Notes: generated from the sequence alone by a model not told the origin. A stretch of DNA of 64,000 nt from an uncultured Methanosarcinales archaeon (GCA_964630685.1 CAZVVW010000005.1:1-64000), one strand, 5' to 3'. Numbered from the stretch's first letter, positions 55,366-64,000 are shown. A program made the numbers and translations.

Positions 55366-55980
55366 ATGACAGATTATAAATTAGTTTTAGCTGACCCTAA
55401 GACTGGCAAATGTTATCAGCGTGAAATAAAAGATGCTGAATCAGAAGTCTTCTTGGGTAAAAAATTAGGAGAAAAAATTAAAGGTGACTCTTTTGGATTG
55501 AGTGGCTATGAGTTTGAAATTACTGGTGGTAGTGATAGCTGTGGATTTCCAATGCGAAAAGATGTTAATGGTGTTGAAAGAAAAAAAGTTTTAGTTATCT
55601 CTGGTGTTGGTGTAAAAATAAAGAGAAAAGGGCAAAGGCAAAGAAAGACTGTAAGGGGAAGAACAATTGGTAGAAATACCAGTCAAATTAATCTTAAGAT
55701 AATTAAGTATGGTAAATCTAAATTAGGTGCTGTTCCAGAAGGAATAGGGGAAGGCGAATCTAAAGAAGAAGAATCTAAAAAAGATTCTCCAACACTTTCA
55801 GAAAAAGAAAGCGAAAAAGAATCTAAGGCTAAAGAAGAAAAACCTAAAGAAGAAGTAGAGAAATCAGAAAAAGAAGCGCCAGAAGAGAAAGCTAAAGAAG
55901 AAGTAGAGAAATCAGAAAAAGAAGCGCCAGAAGAGAAAGCTAAAGAAGAAAAACCTAAAGAAGGTAAAGGTGACAAATAG
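55366..55980 (+). CDS. rps6e: 30S ribosomal protein S6e with acidic repetitive C-terminal extension
   Basis: ITGGSDSCGFPMRKDV, RKTVRG, QINLKI; GGAGGT RBS before ATG 55366. Confidence 0.95.
   Translation: MTDYKLVLADPKTGKCYQREIKDAESEVFLGKKLGEKIKGDSFGLSGYEFEITGGSDSCGFPMRKDVNGVERKKVLVISGVGVKIKRKGQRQRKTVRGRTIGRNTSQINLKIIKYGKSKLGAVPEGIGEGESKEEESKKDSPTLSEKESEKESKAKEEKPKEEVEKSEKEAPEEKAKEEVEKSEKEAPEEKAKEEKPKEGKGDK
55846..55941. repeat. 48-bp exact tandem duplication in the S6e tail
   Basis: Encodes KEEVEKSEKEAPEEKA twice. Confidence 0.9.
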
Positions 55981-57221
55981 TGAAAAAGGACACTTACAAA
56001 CAACCAGAAGTAAACATTGGGTTAGTTGGCCATGTAGATCATGGTAAGACTACTCTAACCGAGAGACTTAGCGGTAAATGGACAGATACTCATTCTGAAG
56101 AACTGAAAAAAGGAATTACTATAAGGTTGGGGTATGCTAATACTATTTTCAGAAAATGTAGTAAATGTAAAGGTGCTAAAGCTTATACTGTAAAAGAAAC
56201 TTGTGAACACTGTAAGTCAAAGACTAAAGAATTGAGAGGTGTTTCTTTTGTTGATGCTCCTGGGCACGAGAGTTTAATGGCTACTATGTTGAGTGGAGCA
56301 AATGTTATGGATGGTGCTCTGTTGCTGATTTCTGCGAATGAAAAATGCCCACAACCTCAAACAAGAGAACATTTGATGGCTTTAGAGATTATTGGAATTA
56401 AAAATGTGATAATTGTTCAAAATAAAATTGATTTAGTGTCTAAAGAAGATGTATTGAAAAATTATGAAGAGATTAAAGAGCTTATTAAAGGCACTCAATA
56501 CAAAGATGCTCCCATTATTCCTGTTTCTGCCCAATTTGCAATTAATATAGGCCATTTAATAGGAATGATAGAGAAAACTATACCTACTCCTAAACGAGAT
56601 AAAAAGAAATCTCCGATTATGTTTGTTGTTAGGTCTTTTGATATTAATAAGCCTGGTTCTGGTCCAGGAAAACTTGTCGGTGGAATACTTGGTGGCGCCT
56701 TGAAAGAAGGTATGTTAAAAGAAGGAGATGATATAACTATCCTCCCTGGAAGAAGCAAAGAAGAACACAATCAAAAGGTTTGGATGCCAATAAAAACCAA
56801 AGTAACTGGATTGATGAGTGGTACCCAAAAAATTAAAGAAGCTGGACCTGGGGGCTCTATAGCTGTAGCAACTTCATTAGATCCTTCTATTGTTAAATCA
56901 GATAATCTTAGCGGAAATGTAGTGGGATTGTTTGGAAAATTGCCTAAAGTGTGGAGCGAACTTCATCTTGAATCAAAATTATTAGAAAGGGTAGTGGGAA
57001 CAAAAGAAGAATTAGATGTTGAACCAATAAAGATAAATGAAGTGATAATGTTTAATGTAAATTCATCTGTAACTGCAGGGGTTGTTAGTGAATTGAGCAA
57101 AGAAGGGTTTAAATCTAAATTAAAATTACCTGTATGTGCTGATGTAGGTGATAGAGTAACTATTTCTAGAATGGTTGGTTCTAGATTTAGGTTAATTGGT
57201 TATGGGATTATTAAGGGGTGA
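55980..57221 (+). CDS. eif2g: translation initiation factor aIF2 gamma
   Basis: QPEVNIGLVGHVDHGKTT, GITIRLGYA, DAPGHE, NKID, RSFDINKPG. Confidence 0.97.
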   Translation: MKKDTYKQPEVNIGLVGHVDHGKTTLTERLSGKWTDTHSEELKKGITIRLGYANTIFRKCSKCKGAKAYTVKETCEHCKSKTKELRGVSFVDAPGHESLMATMLSGANVMDGALLLISANEKCPQPQTREHLMALEIIGIKNVIIVQNKIDLVSKEDVLKNYEEIKELIKGTQYKDAPIIPVSAQFAINIGHLIGMIEKTIPTPKRDKKKSPIMFVVRSFDINKPGSGPGKLVGGILGGALKEGMLKEGDDITILPGRSKEEHNQKVWMPIKTKVTGLMSGTQKIKEAGPGGSIAVATSLDPSIVKSDNLSGNVVGLFGKLPKVWSELHLESKLLERVVGTKEELDVEPIKINEVIMFNVNSSVTAGVVSELSKEGFKSKLKLPVCADVGDRVTISRMVGSRFRLIGYGIIKG

Positions 57222-57226
57222 ATCAA

Positions 57227-57403
57227 ATGGTTGATAAAAGAATAAAAAAAGCTGCACTAAAAAAGACAAAAACTCTTGAGAAAAAAAAGATTATGAGTAA
57301 AGAAGAATTAAAAAAAGATGATGCTGCTTTTATAAAAATGGCTAAAAGTTTGCCTAGATTGTTAAAAGGTAAATTTGCTAAAAGAATCAAAAAAAAGAAA
57401 TGA
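57227..57403 (+). CDS. small basic hypothetical protein
   Basis: GGGGTGA RBS; Lys-rich 58 aa. Confidence 0.5.
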   Translation: MVDKRIKKAALKKTKTLEKKKIMSKEELKKDDAAFIKMAKSLPRLLKGKFAKRIKKKK

Positions 57404-57410
57404 TATGGTA

Positions 57411-58121
57411 TTAAGGAGTTAATACTTTTGAAATTCTCTTAATTACATATCCCTTATCTCTCGGATTATTAACAAAATCTAATTTATCTCTATCTATGAT
57501 TATTGTTTTCTTTGGATTCCAATCATATTTTCTTAATGAGATTACATAATCTCTGTAGAATCCATCTAAATGTTTGATGTAATCTAAACTTATTGCTTGA
57601 GTTCCATCTGCATCGTCTTGTAATTCCATATCTCTCTGTCTTTCACTATGGATATTGTCATAAGAATGTTGAGGAGATATTTGGAGTAATATCAAAAGAT
57701 CTATGGGCCTTATGTTGTCTGTTTTTTCCTTAAATAAGTCAAGATATTGAATGTGTTCTTTATCAGATAAATATCCAAAATGGTTGAGTGATTTTGCAAA
57801 AACTAAAGGATCTTCATATATTGAACGGTCAAATATTGCTGAATTGCCTTCTTTCTCAAAAGAATCATAATCTTTAACTCTTCTATTCAAAAGATATTTT
57901 TGCAATTCAAAAGAGTATTTTTTCTTGTCTTCATAAAATTTAGAAAGTATGGGGTTTTCAGCTATCTCTTCGTAAAATGCGTTAATTGATGCTGTGTTTT
58001 CTATTAGTTTTGCTAATGATGTTTTTCCAGAACCAATGTTTCCTGCAACAGCTAAGAGTAGATTTTCATGAGATAGGCGTGCTCTTAAAATTCCATTGTT
58101 AGTCGATGGTTTTTTAATCAT
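57411..58121 (-). CDS. deoxynucleoside kinase
   Basis: AGNIGSGKTS, KFYED, FDRSIYED, LDFVNN. Confidence 0.9.
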   Translation of the reverse strand: MIKKPSTNNGILRARLSHENLLLAVAGNIGSGKTSLAKLIENTASINAFYEEIAENPILSKFYEDKKKYSFELQKYLLNRRVKDYDSFEKEGNSAIFDRSIYEDPLVFAKSLNHFGYLSDKEHIQYLDLFKEKTDNIRPIDLLILLQISPQHSYDNIHSERQRDMELQDDADGTQAISLDYIKHLDGFYRDYVISLRKYDWNPKKTIIIDRDKLDFVNNPRDKGYVIKRISKVLTP

Positions 58122-58265
58122 TTTTATATTAATTATTCTTGATATATTTAGTTGATTCTTTTATTCACTCCCTTGTTTTTATTGTTTATTGATACTATAA
58201 AAAAGTTTCTATGATTGATCCCCATACTAAAAATTTATATTGTTTATTAGTTTAACTTAATAAAA

Positions 58266-58406
58266 ATGGAAGTTCCTGATTATGAAGAAGTAGAATTTGT
58301 ATGTGAATGTTGTGGTAAAAAAGTTAAAAGAATTAGGCGAAAAAATAATGATTCTAATGAATTTTTATGTCAACAATGTGGTAAAATAAGTATTGGATCT
58401 GATTAA
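58266..58406 (+). CDS. 46-aa zinc-finger microprotein; not in ORF track
   Basis: FVCECCGK..FLCQQCGK; upstream TTTATAT box. Confidence 0.7.
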   Translation: MEVPDYEEVEFVCECCGKKVKRIRRKNNDSNEFLCQQCGKISIGSD

Positions 58407-58466
58407 TGTTTTTAGAAAAGTTTATATAGTTTTATTCGTGAAAAGTTTACAAAAGAGCGTGAATAA

Positions 58467-59180
58467 ATGAAATTAACTCTAAAGAAAAAACCAAAAAATC
58501 CAATTCTTATAGAGGGTTTTCCTGGTTTTGGTTTGATTGGCACTATTGCCACTGAATATCTTATTGACCATTTAGATTGTGAATTAATCGGAAGGTATTG
58601 GTTTGAAGATCTTCCTGCGACTGTTGCGATTCATGAAGAAAAAATGGTGAATCCTGTGGGTATTTTCTATAACAAAAAAAACAATATTGTGATTATTCAT
58701 TCTATTGCTGGTGCTACAGGTGTTGAATGGAAAGCAGCTGATTTTGTATTTGGTGTTGCTAAAGCGCTCAGGGTTAAAGAAATTATTAGTTTAGAAGGTG
58801 TTGGGGCTACAATTTTAAGTGAAAAAAGCAGTGTATTTTACCATACTAATAAAGAAAAAACAAAGAAAAAGATTGAAAAGATGGGGATTAAACCCTTGAA
58901 AGAAGGAATCATTATGGGGATTACGTCTGCATTGATGGTTATCATTAAAGAAAAAATTCCCATGACTTGCTTTTTTGCTGAAACTCACACTAGTTTGCCA
59001 GATAGCAAAGCCGCAGCTAAAGTTATAGAGGTTTTAGATAAATATTTAGGGTTGAATGTAGACTATAAACCTTTATTAAAACAAGCTGAAAAATTTGAAG
59101 ATAAATTAAGAAAATTAATGGAACGGGGAGTTACTGCCAAAAAACAGAAGGATCGTAAATCTTTGAGTTATGTTGGTTAA
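58467..59180 (+). CDS. PAC2-family proteasome assembly chaperone
   Basis: IEGFPGFGLIGTIATEYL, PDSKAAA, C-terminal SYVG. Confidence 0.88.
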   Translation: MKLTLKKKPKNPILIEGFPGFGLIGTIATEYLIDHLDCELIGRYWFEDLPATVAIHEEKMVNPVGIFYNKKNNIVIIHSIAGATGVEWKAADFVFGVAKALRVKEIISLEGVGATILSEKSSVFYHTNKEKTKKKIEKMGIKPLKEGIIMGITSALMVIIKEKIPMTCFFAETHTSLPDSKAAAKVIEVLDKYLGLNVDYKPLLKQAEKFEDKLRKLMERGVTAKKQKDRKSLSYVG

Positions 59181-59682
59181 TTTAATATATTCTTTAATAT
59201 ATATTTTAGGGTTTATAGTTTTAAATGGTTATTTTTTAAAATATATTCTGTAAAAGATATGATTTAATGTGTTTTTTGTAGTGCTTATAACTTTTAGTCT
59301 TTGCTTAAAAGTTTTAATACGTTAAATTGAGCTTAGAGGTTTTAATCTTTTCTTAAATGTTTTAGTTAGATTAACAAGAAAGATTTTGATTTTTAAAATC
59401 TTAAATCATTATAAAAATTTTTAAATTTTTTATATAATTGCAATATTGAAAATAAATACTACTCTTTTTTGTTGAAAAGTGTAAAGAATTTTTTGGATAT
59501 AAAAAAATAAATATTGTTTTTTGAAAAAAGTTGGGTTTTTGATATTTTTTGTTTTTGCTGGTTTTATGATATTTTTAAGTGTGTTGTTTTTTATGAAAAA
59601 CCCTTGCGGTTTTTGTGTAAATAAGGCAAAGTAAGTCCATTTAAGCACAAAAATAGGGGTTTTAAGGGAAGATTTATATATT

Positions 59683-59710
59683 TACGCGTATAAGGTACAT
59701 TATACGCGTA
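59683..59710. other. dif-like Xer recombination site
   Basis: TACGCGTATAA-GGTACA-TTATACGCGTA: perfect 11-bp inverted arms, 6-bp spacer, inner ATAA/TTAT; 34 bp upstream of xerA. Confidence 0.8.
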
Positions 59711-59744
59711 TTTTTGAGCACAAAAGTCTAAAAAAGAGGTAAAA

Positions 59745-60557
59745 ATGATAGAAAAGCTTGAAACTGAATTGAAATTAAGGGGTTTTAGTAAACAAACTTT
59801 AAAGGCTTATTTGTATTATAATCGATTATTTCTTAGATATATTCAAAAAACGCCAGAAAGTATTTTAGAAGATGATATAAAAAAATATATAGGTCATCTT
59901 TTGACTGATGAAAACTATTCTGCTTCTTCGGTTAGTTTAGTAAAAGCTGCGTTGAAATTTTTTTATGATGAAGTGCTGAAAAAAGGGGTTGTTAATTTCA
60001 AGACTCCTAAAATCGATAAAAAGTTACCAATTGTGCTTTCTAAAGAAGAAGTGAGGAAATTGATAGATTCTGCAGGAACTGAGAAAAGTAAATTGATTAT
60101 CAAAATGTTGTATTCTTCTGGATTGAGGTTAAGTGAATGTATTAACTTGAAAAAAGGGGATTTAGAGTTTAGTGAGAAAATTGCGTGGGTTCGTGGCGGA
60201 AAAGGTAAAAAAGATAGAATTGTTATTTTTTCTGAGAATTTGATCGAAGAATTGAAAAAATACCTTGAAAACAAGGGTTTTGAGTCGGAATATGTGTTTT
60301 CAGGGCCAAATGGATCTATTAGTGCAAGGAATGTACAAGATATAGTAAAAAACGCTAGCAAACGTGCTGGAATCACTAAAAACGTTAGTCCCCACACTTT
60401 AAGACATTGTTTTGCAACACATTTACTTGAATCAGGAGTAGATATTAGAAAGATACAGGAATTACTTGGACACTCTAATCTTCAAACAACCCAGATATAT
60501 ACGAGAGTTTCTAAAGAAGAATTGAAGAAGGTAAAAAGCCCTTTGGATGATATCTAA
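59745..60557 (+). CDS. xerA: XerA-type tyrosine recombinase
   Basis: SGLRLSE (R), GKGKKDR (K), HTLRH (HxxR), LGHSN, TTQIY; N-terminal LRGFS..T..AY. Confidence 0.9.
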   Translation: MIEKLETELKLRGFSKQTLKAYLYYNRLFLRYIQKTPESILEDDIKKYIGHLLTDENYSASSVSLVKAALKFFYDEVLKKGVVNFKTPKIDKKLPIVLSKEEVRKLIDSAGTEKSKLIIKMLYSSGLRLSECINLKKGDLEFSEKIAWVRGGKGKKDRIVIFSENLIEELKKYLENKGFESEYVFSGPNGSISARNVQDIVKNASKRAGITKNVSPHTLRHCFATHLLESGVDIRKIQELLGHSNLQTTQIYTRVSKEELKKVKSPLDDI

Positions 60558-60690
60558 AACCTTTAAACTTTGCTTAAAAGTTTTAAGCGTGTAATTGTTA
60601 AGGGTGTTTTTATGTTTATTATATTCTTTAAACTATATATTGTTAAATAATCTTTTTAAAATAATTAATTTATACTATTTGTTGAGATAT

Positions 60691-61254
60691 CTATTTTTGA
60701 GATACTATCTTCTTAGAAACTGATTCATTGATTTTTACAATGTTCTTTTTTGCTTGGAGCTCTCTGAATTGAGGGCTTAATCTTAAGTAAACTTCTTTAT
60801 CCAGGTATTTTTTGTAGATAGGTATTCCTTTTTCAATAAGATTTGTAATATAGTTTTGAACTAAAGGGGGTGTTATACACAAAAACTTAGCGATTTTTGA
60901 GTAAGTAACTGGCTCTTGTTCTTGCTCTAATGTATAAAAGGTTAGAAAAATTTCTTGTTCTTTTCTCGTCAGAGGGGTTATTTTAAACTTAATTTTTTTG
61001 TGTTTTGATGTTTTTTTTCCGAGATGCTGAATAAACATCATCACTTCATCTAATTTCTCATTTAATTTATCTATTTTAGAATCTAATTCATATAAATATT
61101 CATAATTAGAATGGATTTCATTTGTATTTTCGTTTATAGCGTCGAGGTGTTCTTCAAATTCGTCTTTGATTTTATCAAAAGTTGCCTTTAATTTTTTGTT
61201 TAATCGTTCTTTTTCTCGACGAGAAACTTGATTTTTTAAATTTTTGTTTACCAT
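60691..61254 (-). CDS. coiled-coil + C-terminal winged-helix protein
   Basis: Heptad region, then PLTRKEQEIF..TYSKIAKFL..VQNYITNLIEKGIPI. Confidence 0.75.
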   Translation of the reverse strand: MVNKNLKNQVSRREKERLNKKLKATFDKIKDEFEEHLDAINENTNEIHSNYEYLYELDSKIDKLNEKLDEVMMFIQHLGKKTSKHKKIKFKITPLTRKEQEIFLTFYTLEQEQEPVTYSKIAKFLCITPPLVQNYITNLIEKGIPIYKKYLDKEVYLRLSPQFRELQAKKNIVKINESVSKKIVSQK

Positions 61255-61300
61255 ATCCCAACAAGACAACAAAGAAAGAGGAGATTTAAATAGTTTTCTA

Positions 61301-61951
61301 CTAAACTCTTTTAATTAATTTACTGAGGTATAATTTTTCGTTTCCTTGCCTTACAACATCGACGTGATCTGATTCTTCTATCTCTGTAAGAATACGGTAA
61401 AAAGAACTCTTTGAGCATAATCCTTGTTCATCTACAACTATTTCTCTTAATTTTAAAGAGGAAATATTTTCATATTTCTGGATTAATGAAAAAACTAGGT
61501 TTTTTACATACCCTTTAGAATTTCTAGTTATTTTTTGAATTAATTTTTCTTTAAATGATGGCTTTGGAGGGTTCCCTATTTGTTCTATTTTTGAGTGTAA
61601 TTCATGGATTTTGTCGTGCATAGGCTGATGTGAATCCATGATAGTGTTAATCTGTTGATCAAAGCTCTTTATCCTGTTTAATAATTCTTTGAATGCATAA
61701 TGATCGTCGAGAATTTCCCTTATTTCATGTTTTGATAAAGGAGATGTCGATATTTTTTCATGAAGATGTTGAAGAAGCCTTTGTTGGTTTGCCATTATTT
61801 TTTCTTGTTCTTGATGTTTAAGATGAAAATAATTGATCCATTCAAAAATATTGGATGTATGGGATTTTACATTATTAAAAGAATCTGCCAATGTAGAATG
61901 GAGCGAATGAATATCTTCTTTTGTTGCGTATTTCTTTTTAGACCAAAACAT
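61301..61951 (-). CDS. coiled-coil + C-terminal winged-helix protein
   Basis: Helical body, then ISSLKLREIVVDEQGLCSKSSFYRILTEIE. Confidence 0.72.
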   Translation of the reverse strand: MFWSKKKYATKEDIHSLHSTLADSFNNVKSHTSNIFEWINYFHLKHQEQEKIMANQQRLLQHLHEKISTSPLSKHEIREILDDHYAFKELLNRIKSFDQQINTIMDSHQPMHDKIHELHSKIEQIGNPPKPSFKEKLIQKITRNSKGYVKNLVFSLIQKYENISSLKLREIVVDEQGLCSKSSFYRILTEIEESDHVDVVRQGNEKLYLSKLIKRV

Positions 61952-61988
61952 TATTTTTGTAATAAAAGCATTCTCATATATAAATTTT

Positions 61989-62228
61989 TGGGAATGTTTT
62001 GGGAATATGTTGGGAAAAATGTGGGAATGTTTTGGGCTTTGAAGTTGCTAAAAATGATGTGTTGAGGGCGTATTGGTTTTTTTGATGGGAATGGAGTGGG
62101 AACGTATTGGGAATAGTTTGGGAATAGGGTGGGAATGTTTTGGGAATAGAAATATTGGGGTTTATAGAGGAGAAAATAGGCTGGGAATGTGGGAATCTTT
62201 GAGAATAAAGTGGGAATTGGAGGGGAAT
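61989..62228. repeat. 11-bp-phased TGGGAAT direct-repeat array
   Basis: 13 TGGGAA copies plus degenerate ones, all on +; starts 61989/62000/62011/62022 and 62086/97/108/119/130/141. Confidence 0.9.
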
Positions 62229-62416
62229 TAAGAAGTTTATAGGTATAGTGAGGGTAAAAGTTATATATCAGTGATGTTCTTGAATGCTGTAAATGAATAT
62301 GGCATAAATATGGTGATGATATCCATTATTTAAAAAAATTTAAGTTAAAAGTGAGAGTTTATGGAGGGGAGTATAAGGTAGATATAAGGTAAATATGAGG
62401 CAGATATAACATATAT

Positions 62417-63067
62417 ATGACAAATATAAGATCTAAAGGGGAATTAGCAGTGTTTTTAGCTAGTTTAAAGGGGTTTAAGAAGCCAAAAGTGAGACTTGAA
62501 CAATATATTATGGATAGTGAAATAGGTGCTCAAGTGCTTTGGGAAGCCTATATGAAGGGAGATATAGAGGGAAAAGTGATAGCTGACCTTGGTTGTGGTA
62601 CTGGTTTATTGGGTATTGGGGCGTTATTATTGGGTGCTAAGAAGGTTTTTCTCGTCGATATTGATGATTCTGCTATTGAAGTGGCTAAAACTAACCTTGC
62701 TAAAGTCAAAAGTGAGGGTTATGGGAATTATATGATTGGTGAATCCATCTTTTTAATGTGTGGTGTGGCAGGGTTTGATGAGTCTGTTGATGTTATTATA
62801 CAAAATCCTCCTTTTGGAGTCAAAGTGAGGGGGGCTGATAGGGCATTTCTTAAGAAATCCATGAGTGTTGCAGATGTTGTGTATAGTTTTCACAAAAGTG
62901 AGAGTAATGAGTTCATTAAAAAGTGTTCTAATGATGGAGGGTTTAGTGTTGAAGGTTATTGGGAATTTGATTATCCAATAAAAGCTATGCATGAATTCCA
63001 TACTCGGAGAATTTATAGGTTTAGGGTTGGGTGCTGGCGATTGGTAAGAAAAAGAGTGAAGTGTTGA
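62417..63067 (+). CDS. METTL5-family methyltransferase
   Basis: [23 protein letters not shown]. Confidence 0.9.
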
Positions 63068-63123
63068 GTGGAGTGTTGAGTGGAGTGTTGAGTGGAGTGT
63101 TGAGTGGAGTGTTGAGTGAAGTG
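63054..63123. repeat. 12-bp tandem repeat GAGTGGAGTGTT (about 6 copies)
   Basis: Four exact copies 63066-63113 with GAGTGAAGTG variants on each side; spans the METTL5 stop. Confidence 0.9.
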
Positions 63124-63173
63124 GCCTAATTAGTAAGTTTTATAAATAAAGGATTGTTTTTTGCTAAAGTAAA

Positions 63174-63449
63174 ATGGAAGTTAAAATTATTGAGGAGAAA
63201 AAGAATAGGATTGTATTGGAGATAGAAGGTGTTGGTCATGGTTTCTGCAATGCATTAGTCAAAGAATTATACAATGATAAAGATACTAAATCTGCTGGAT
63301 ATCATATTGATCATCCATTGGTTGGAGTTCCTAAATTTATTGTCGAGAGTAAAAGCGATGCTAGAAAAGCAGTGATGAATGCTATCAAAAGATTAAAAAA
63401 AGTTACTGATTCTTTTAAAAAAGAAGTTGTTAAGTCTATAAAAAAATGA
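63174..63449 (+). CDS. rpoL: DNA-directed RNA polymerase subunit L (Rpo11)
   Basis: GVGHGFCNAL, AGYHIDHPL. Confidence 0.9.
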   Translation: MEVKIIEEKKNRIVLEIEGVGHGFCNALVKELYNDKDTKSAGYHIDHPLVGVPKFIVESKSDARKAVMNAIKRLKKVTDSFKKEVVKSIKK

Positions 63450-64000
63450 TTGATTCTGCCAAGGAATTGGTGAATTTAGTTAAAGGAGTTATAGGGGCGC
63501 GTTTTTCTGGAAAAGATTTTAATGTTAATAATGAATTGAAAGAGAAGTTTTCTGATAAGTTAGGGGTGTTTGTTACACTCAATGAAATGACTGGTGAAGA
63601 AGAAAATCTTCGTGGGTGTATTGGATTTATTGAACCTGTTTTTCCCCTGTGGGAAGGTGTTGTTAAAGGCGCTGAAGCTGCTGCTTTCGAGGATCCAAGA
63701 TTTGTGCCGTTAGATAAAAGGGAATGGAAGGATATTAAAATTGAGATTTCTGTTTTGACTAAACCTGAATTAATTGAGGTTGATGAATCTGTTGGAGCCA
63801 GTGATTATCTGAATAAGATTAAAGTTGGCGAAGATGGGTTGATTGTTGAGTGCGGAATGTATAAAGGATTATTGTTGCCTAGGGTTGCTGAAGAATATGG
63901 TTGGGATAGTGAAGAATTCTTAAAACAGACATGCCATAAAGCAGGGCTTGAGTTTGATGCTTGGAGAAATGATGATGTGAAAGTGTATAAGTTCCAGGCA
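63446..64000 (+). CDS. AMMECR1-domain protein (3'-truncated by window edge)
   Basis: GVFVTL..LRGCIG, AAFEDPRF, EISVLT, GLLLP. Confidence 0.9.
   Translation, partial: MIDSAKELVNLVKGVIGARFSGKDFNVNNELKEKFSDKLGVFVTLNEMTGEEENLRGCIGFIEPVFPLWEGVVKGAEAAAFEDPRFVPLDKREWKDIKIEISVLTKPELIEVDESVGASDYLNKIKVGEDGLIVECGMYKGLLLPRVAEEYGWDSEEFLKQTCHKAGLEFDAWRNDDVKVYKFQA

Follow-up and report, generated by a model that had tools for sequence, protein, structure and literature searches.

A single-copy, order-wide archaeal locus encoding two new winged-helix protein families beside conserved repeat arrays and, usually, a dif-like site and xerA

An order-wide, single-copy locus of an uncultured archaeon encodes two new protein families, here called protA and protB, carries at least three conserved classes of DNA motif and usually lies beside a dif-like site and the recombinase gene xerA. 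It was found in the window, by which we mean the whole stretch of 64,000 nucleotides that was analysed (contig C5:1-64000 of G000, the genome that holds it; 936 kb in 35 contigs, 96.6% complete). The names on homologs of the window's proteins are Woesearchaeota or Nanoarchaeota, and the host is a small DPANN archaeon. From 58.4 to 63.5 kb the gene order is PAC2 (+), a 564-bp spacer, xerA (+), protA (-), protB (-), a 465-bp gap, methyltransferase (+) and rpoL (+) (Table 1). Our literature search, in which subscription journals and supplements were not covered, found no description of the locus. An earlier note on the window had proposed that the two proteins bind the nearby repeats as a centromere-like or initiator-like system coupled to dimer resolution. 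We favour, with a probability of about 0.45, the reading that these coiled-coil/winged-helix proteins coat the arrays and so form a single-copy nucleoprotein block beside dif, acting as a boundary, a roadblock or a centromere-like site, and also autoregulate their own genes.

The phased array upstream of protB, which the earlier note had placed at the promoter of the two winged-helix genes, is not a product of chance. The window has 31 copies of TGGGAAT (13.6 expected), a count reached in none of 100 shuffles, and 11 exact copies are found at 61989-62217, all on the + strand (16 units when those with one mismatch are included). Genome-wide, the pattern TGGGAANNNNNTGGGAA has eight matches, every one inside the array, and the reversed control pattern has none; TGGGA[AC] reaches 14 copies per 600 bp at the array versus four at the next best place in G000. 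The same locus holds the densest TGGGA[AC] cluster in G016, a closed relative whose chromosome was rebuilt (1,301,350 bp; nine versus five), and in G098 (eight versus four), and the first two clusters of the array are nearly identical in G018, a relative of the same genus. Upstream of protB in 29 relatives, GGGA[AC] is found 222 times in the forward and 47 times in the reverse orientation, and among 195 successive spacings 83 are of exactly 11 bp, 18 of 22 bp and 5 of 33 bp. At least four phased copies precede protB in 21 of the 29 relatives, as well as in the window, and the order-wide consensus of the unit is T.TGGGA[AC]T[AG]T. Being 11 bp apart, the sites lie on one face of the helix. No variants were found across contigs from four DNA runs, the sole joints having sides of fewer than 30 letters. 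Contigs of other samples break off at the arrays.

The array starts directly upstream of the protB TATA-like element, and in most of the relatives' loci 36-65 nt separate its first copy from the protB ATG. This is the placement expected under the main rival explanation, an ordinary autoregulated pair of transcription factors in which the arrays are the pair's own operators, perhaps also serving the divergent methyltransferase-rpoL promoter, and in which the proximity of dif and xerA is inherited and functionless; we consider this possible, with the odds leaning against it. However, 16 sites in 240 bp, with two other classes of motif spread over about 1 kb, go far beyond a usual operator. Moreover, the array is not merely an operator or promoter element of protB, because it lies 3' of the gene in two loci in which protB is inverted (L038 and L039, about 17 copies each, in the interval from the 3' end of protB to the methyltransferase gene) and, in G016, occupies a non-coding gap of about 1 kb between protB and a gene convergent with it. 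Non-coding gaps of 243-1102 bp are retained at the locus in very compact genomes, which also argues against plain operators, as does the behaviour of the AGTGAG motif, which is strictly one-stranded and extends into coding region: 67 forward copies versus none in reverse were counted in 30 regions (the 29 relatives and the window), mostly on the methyltransferase side, with a default stretch of at most 900 nt extending into genes for six loci. In G000 the five AAGTGAG copies within 2 kb are the densest cluster of the genome, the next best place holding two.

Both proteins are predicted to consist of a long N-terminal helix followed by a C-terminal winged helix (predicted local distance difference test scores of 84 for protA and 79.7 for protB), in keeping with the coiled-coil and winged-helix architecture put forward in the earlier note. 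That note had the two genes convergent with each other; they are tandem genes of the minus strand with 46 nt between them, converge with xerA alone, and probably form one operon. Nor are they orphans, as had been supposed, since 352 relatives of protA and 233 of protB were found at E <= 1e-3, all unnamed or labelled helix-turn-helix (HTH) proteins. In the alignments, protA has an invariant N-terminal motif (HLxAINxNTxEI, with H36, I40, N41, T44 and E46), and in the winged helix of protB the helix EQGLCSKSSFYR is nearly invariant. protA scores 27.4 bits with Pfam Fe_dep_repress (cut-off 26), and protB matches no Pfam family above cut-off. Profile-profile comparison detects no homology between the two (probability 8.7%). 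Foldseek searches of the Protein Data Bank (PDB) with both models return generic winged-helix matches alone, all at E > 1e-3; these are MarR, PadR and ArsR-type regulators, a spectrum that suits the regulator pair, with TubR among the weak ones. Profile searches of PDB sequences with both proteins give coiled-coil and HTH noise and nothing more, and the ESM Atlas gives for protA unnamed Woesearchaeota and Nanobdellota clusters alone. Prediction of a protB-protA complex (score 0.08, mark 0.32) counts neither way. Thus, structure prediction and fold search place protA and protB in no known family beyond the generic winged helix, and they are two new protein families. In one locus (L031, genome G104, 1068-1376) the protA homolog is matched as two pieces in different frames, possibly a frameshift or an assembly error.

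A paralog of protB bears on what the winged helix may read. This 150-aa protein is encoded on contig C10 of G000, with six TGAGAC/GTCTCA copies in the 140 bp directly 5' of its start, against a genome background of 0.13 per kb; the five forward TGAGAC copies are spaced by 22, 11, 65 and 33 bp. The recognition helices of the two paralogs are similar, and both arrays are 11-bp-phased heptamers, TGGGAMW and TGAGACW. Because two paralogs each stand behind an 11-bp-phased array of related heptamers, the protB-type winged helix may read such arrays, for which the pair provides indirect support. The gene-plus-array layout of the paralog is also what an autoregulated pair would lead one to expect. Two boxes resembling the origin recognition box (ORB) lie beside the C10 paralog (C10:16883 and 16917; paralog region C10:16387-17100, L010 1438-2100), and G098 likewise has two (379,605 and 379,635) beside its protB paralog (379,749). 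Such a pair of boxes with a paralog may mark an Orc1-bound site away from orc1.

Of the 201 genomes sampled from the order, 90 yielded protB (E <= 1e-5), and a profile search across the phylum finds it in 176 of 301. Matches over the full length are confined to some families (22 of 24 genomes in family f43, 0 of 36 in f94), those in other orders covering the N-terminal part only. Synteny was assessed in two sets: the 29 best protB loci, of which three (L022, L034 and L036) come from unpublished genomes, and 20 loci fetched with flanks of 6 kb, every one from a published genome. protA adjoins protB in 29 of 29 loci (26 of 26 without the unpublished genomes) and in 20 of 20 with flanks; the methyltransferase gene does so in 26 of 29 (23 of 26) and 18 of 20, respectively. 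xerA is directly adjacent in 11 of the 20 flanked loci, 3-5 kb away in two and outside the fetched flanks in seven. The core that is conserved thus consists of rpoL, methyltransferase, array, protB and protA, whereas xerA adjoins it frequently without being obligatory; the linkage to an array seen in the window is order-wide, and that to xerA holds often. In this respect, and in the lack of any known family for the two proteins, the locus withstands the refuting conditions that the earlier note had set. Two loci (L048 and L056) have shorter Xer-like matches.

Across many families the locus keeps the same chromosomal place, from PAC2 to methyltransferase-rpoL, which indicates vertical descent. 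This, and the absence of any tblastn match to protA or protB in 72,556 plasmid and 50,697 phage records, speaks against a domesticated plasmid or virus remnant. We consider such a remnant unlikely, together with the related idea that the proteins and repeats are accessory factors and sequences controlling how XerA recombines dif, in the manner of ArgR and PepA at cer. In support of these two ideas, xerA and its own site are bracketed by two types of repeat in mirrored order, an AT-rich box and palindromic boxes on one side (59177-59365) and a palindromic box and an AT-rich box on the other (60555-60641), and xerA varies in orientation relative to protA (six convergent and five co-directional among the 11 adjacent cases). 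The array, however, lies 2.3 kb from dif, too distant for an accessory sequence of the cer type, and the boxes on the protA side are kept in loci without xerA. Box-like palindromes are found within about 200 nt 3' of the protA stop in 10 of the 20 flanked loci and at 500-600 nt in two more, loci lacking an adjacent xerA being among them.

The repeated palindromic boxes of the earlier note are confirmed. The box CTTTGCTTAAAAGTTTTAA has exact copies at 59299 and 60568, flanking xerA, and a copy with three mismatches at 59347. Its 14-nt core, with at most one mismatch, has four matches genome-wide, one a variant on contig C3 and three at the two exact-box positions, because the palindrome at 60572 matches on both strands. 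In the units 5' of xerA the half-boxes are 20 bp apart and the units 48 bp apart. The stretch 59175-59380 is about 90% identical to G018, and the middle of the spacer is not conserved.

Between the boxes lie xerA and the dif-like site, both of which hold up as first described, the site being a perfect 11+6+11 palindrome and the gene scoring well above the family cut-off (Table 1). Compared with Pyrococcus abyssi XerA (PDB 4a8e), the xerA product gives E = 1e-56 with the GLR.SE, HxLRH, LGH and Y motifs aligned, and by sequence it is a member of the XerA equivalog family. A loose dif pattern matches two sites in the G000 genome, one of which is 59683-59710; this site is identical in G018, and related palindromes are found 5' of xerA in four other loci (L044, L050, L054 and L060). 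Since it lies between a TATA-like element, TTTATATAT, and the xerA ATG, XerA bound there would also occupy its own promoter. In addition, GCACAAAA repeats flank the palindrome and an inverted TTTTTGTG ... CACAAAAA pair lies upstream (59600-59740), both conserved in G018.

The initiator-like half of the earlier proposal would make the locus a secondary, Orc1-independent origin with the arrays as iterons, the AT-rich spacer as unwinding element and protA/protB as a winged-helix initiator, a type of protein exemplified by WhiP at Sulfolobus oriC3. Iteron-like phased repeats do stand beside a winged-helix gene with an AT-rich 564-bp spacer nearby, and in a wide VIA-align search the best rows for protA are Cdc6 winged-helix domains (Z 9.0); as winged helices of AF1382 and ArsR score within 1 Z unit of them (Z 8-9), the Cdc6 rows are a lead only. 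Against this, the distance from the locus to orc1 is 328 kb in G016, 360 kb in G098 and 354 kb in G173, and in G000 orc1 is on contig C19, not on the contig of the locus. On the G016 chromosome the detrended cumulative GC skew bottoms out at 760,920, beside orc1 (765,076) and an ORB-like box (764,088), and peaks at 167,975; at the locus (about 437 kb), which is 324 kb away from the minimum and 269 kb from the maximum, there is no turning point. The cumulative skew of G098 is nearly monotonic, so that origin and terminus are not placeable there. The ORB-like pattern, which is rare, with three, two and two hits in G000, G016 and G098 (those in G000 on C10 and C19 only), finds no box in the locus, and the AT-rich spacer is its least conserved part. 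These data speak against a canonical origin and, in G016, also against a skew-defined terminus; a secondary origin appears very unlikely to us, and the initiator half of the earlier proposal is weakened, whereas its centromere-like half stays plausible.

In the reading that we favour, protB, probably with protA, would oligomerise via its N-terminal coiled coil, and the C-terminal winged helix would occupy both the row of TGGGA(A/C)T sites and, across the operon from it, the palindromic boxes. Next to dif and xerA, these two kinds of occupied site would make up a rigid block of protein and DNA. Because the array starts at the TATA element, such a block would also set the level of the protB-protA operon, and it would mark the neighbourhood of dif as a chromosomal landmark. 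Its most likely role would be that of a roadblock or boundary for Smc-ScpAB, or of a centromere-like pairing or anchoring site. Smc and ScpA are encoded in G000, ScpA on contig C9.

Several observations weigh against the nucleoprotein block. Much of the anatomy is accounted for by plain autoregulation, since in most loci the first repeats of the array stand at the protB TATA element. PAS domains are fused to one protA homolog (P0206, 299 aa), a hint that some members of the family sense signals, as ordinary regulators might. The link to dif is loose, because seven of the 20 flanked loci have no xerA within 6 kb and a recognisable dif-type palindrome is found upstream in five of the 11 loci with adjacent xerA; for want of xerA in those seven loci, which also suit the regulator pair, the coupling to dimer resolution proposed earlier is partial. 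With an SMC hinge found in 186 of the 201 genomes of the order versus protB in 90, the phylogenetic profile gives no support. No motor ATPase was found near the locus, ParA-like genes being on contig C3. Between 56 and 64 kb the scanned open reading frames (ORFs; dNK, PAC2, xerA, protA, protB, methyltransferase and RpoL) all belong to families other than actin-like motors, for which no dedicated family search was made, and the unscanned ones are too short for such a motor, except a 413-aa translation-GTPase-like ORF at 55980-57221. Covariation between array position 6 (A or C) and protein columns, in 14-15 loci, is confounded by kinship, and the recognition helices carry no signal. Finally, the pairing of proteins with motifs, oligomerisation and chromosomal function are inferred, no motif being assigned to either protein.

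It is conceivable, if on balance doubtful, that the locus represents an undescribed chromosome-organising system of the Woesearchaeales, a single-copy boundary or centromere element with two dedicated proteins, usually beside dif, that would position or stall Smc-ScpAB or pair sisters for XerA. That the element of such a system would comprise the phased TGGGAMT array, the AGTGAG motifs and the palindromic boxes, and occur in many Woesearchaeales families, we put forward as tentatively. If true, prokaryotes would have in it an equivalent of a CTCF-type insulator, one that carries the genes of its own binding proteins, and if the proteins build a boundary or centromere, the first archaeal element with dedicated, locally encoded, sequence-specific binding proteins. 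Chromosome organisation and segregation in archaea without ParAB or SegAB-type systems are largely obscure, above all in uncultivated DPANN; the locus offers defined DNA motifs and two small, directly expressible proteins, and it ties in with the finding that sequences surrounding dif form SMC boundaries in other archaea.

Table 1. Features of the locus, with positions counted from the first letter of the window
Feature	Position	Strand	Description
Two units of paired palindromic boxes	59283..59365		CTTATAACTTTTAGT/CTTAAAAGTTTTAAT, then CTTAGAGGTTTTAAT/CTTAAATGTTTTAGT
AT-rich variable spacer	59380..59600		Low conservation, indels relative to G018
dif-like site	59683..59710		TACGCGTATAA-GGTACA-TTATACGCGTA; perfect 11-bp inverted arms, 6-bp spacer
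xerA, tyrosine recombinase, 270 aa	59745..60557	+	NF040815 281.5 bits (cut-off 220); Pfam Phage_integrase 2.6e-45
Palindromic box unit	60555..60588		Perfect 17-bp palindrome GCTTAAAA-G-TTTTAAGC (60572-60588), between xerA and protA stops
protA, 187 aa	60691..61254	-	Predicted helix 4-80, MarR/DtxR-like winged helix (97-159), two C-terminal helices
protB, 216 aa	61301..61951	-	N-terminal motif SFxxVKxxTxxIFxW; predicted helices 11-126, winged helix (133-210)
Phased array	61989..62228	+	16 TGGGAAT-like units, 11-bp period; clusters 61989-62039, 62086-62147, 62182-62228
AAGTGAG cluster	62349..62902	+	Five copies, all forward; intergenic into methyltransferase gene, two reading frames
11-bp tandem repeat TATAAGGTAGA	62372..62420		About 3.5 copies, just 5' of methyltransferase start; not conserved in G018
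Methyltransferase	62417..63067	+	Small, S-adenosylmethionine-dependent, NPPF motif; Pfam MTS 3e-13
rpoL	63174-63449	+	With methyltransferase, conserved neighbour on the array side

Some further features lie around the locus. A 12-bp tandem repeat, GAGTGGAGTGTT (63054-63123; 5.8 copies, 96% matches), resembles AGTGAG, begins in the last codons of the methyltransferase gene and spans the gap up to rpoL. For a minus-strand ORF of 72 aa in the AT-rich spacer we found no support, and no Rfam family was matched at E <= 1 over 57000-64000. On the scale of the genome, Chargaff's second rule is broken by strong strand asymmetry in contigs C1-C12 of G000 and in the G016 and G098 chromosomes. One strand of G016 holds 35.2% A and 29.2% T over 1.3 Mb, despite ORFs on both strands; G098, with its nearly monotonic skew, has 16.4% C versus 13.8% G; and G is well above C in 10 of the 12 largest G000 contigs (18.9% versus 11.9% in C1).

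Among known systems, the iteron initiators RepA, RepE and pi have two tandem winged helices, whereas protA and protB are each predicted to have one, behind a coiled coil. Iteron replicons also place their iterons next to an AT-rich unwinding element; here the AT-rich spacer, the part least conserved, is 2 kb from the array. In type III partition, the winged-helix protein TubR binds tubC, an array of short repeats; the likeness to TubR is that of a generic winged helix (Foldseek E > 1e-3), and no TubZ or other partner was identified here. pSK1 Par and RacA are anchoring proteins that, like protA and protB, join a coiled coil to a DNA-binding domain, which is N-terminal in those proteins and C-terminal in the ones described here. 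The iterons of parC are 11 bp long. In plasmid R1, parC is a type II centromere that consists of two iteron sets around the promoter (PMC2241845), and the locus resembles it in having direct repeats with an 11-bp phase, in separate sets, around the promoter of a putative binding-protein gene. Array-bound ParR autoregulates its own gene in R1. However, ParR is a ribbon-helix-helix protein with the actin-like ParM next to it, whereas here a coiled coil is combined with a winged helix and no motor is nearby; moreover, parC is carried by a plasmid, whereas the present locus is chromosomal and order-wide.

With respect to the recombination site, PMC2958812 gives 11+6+11 as the layout of archaeal dif, and mentions streptococcal XerS/difSL, in which the Xer gene lies beside its own site. 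In haloarchaea, as reported in PMC11840125, a dif-like site lies 5' of the xerA operon at a boundary. The locus is like both in having a single recombinase gene with an 11+6+11 site immediately upstream. The Thermococcales differ; according to PMC2958812 their dif is not adjacent to xerA and lies 122-142 degrees from oriC, whereas here the xerA promoter and the dif-like site overlap. The G016 locus is about 90 degrees from the skew minimum, and no palindrome was recognised 5' of its xerA.

By analogy, the closest functional precedent for the locus would seem to be the TrmBL2-dependent boundary of Thermococcus kodakarensis. In that species (PMC11840125), 1.9 kb of intergenic sequence surrounding dif are both required and enough to set up a boundary to Smc-ScpAB, and this boundary depends on the winged-helix protein TrmBL2 and on neither XerA nor dif. 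TrmBL2 belongs to the TrmB family and is a nucleoid protein acting throughout the genome, where it builds a stiff nucleoprotein structure. Unlike it, protA and protB belong to new families and would be a dedicated pair, encoded at the site itself next to discrete phased motifs. No TrmB row was found for either protein among Pfam matches at E <= 1, and their winged helix is C-terminal, not N-terminal as in TrmB-type proteins; no SMC_ScpA or ScpB Pfam rows were found for them either, ScpB chains appearing only among tied generic winged-helix rows (Z 7.2-7.6). What the locus shares with the T. kodakarensis boundary is a large non-coding region adjoining dif, a winged-helix protein, one site per chromosome and a genome that encodes Smc and ScpA.

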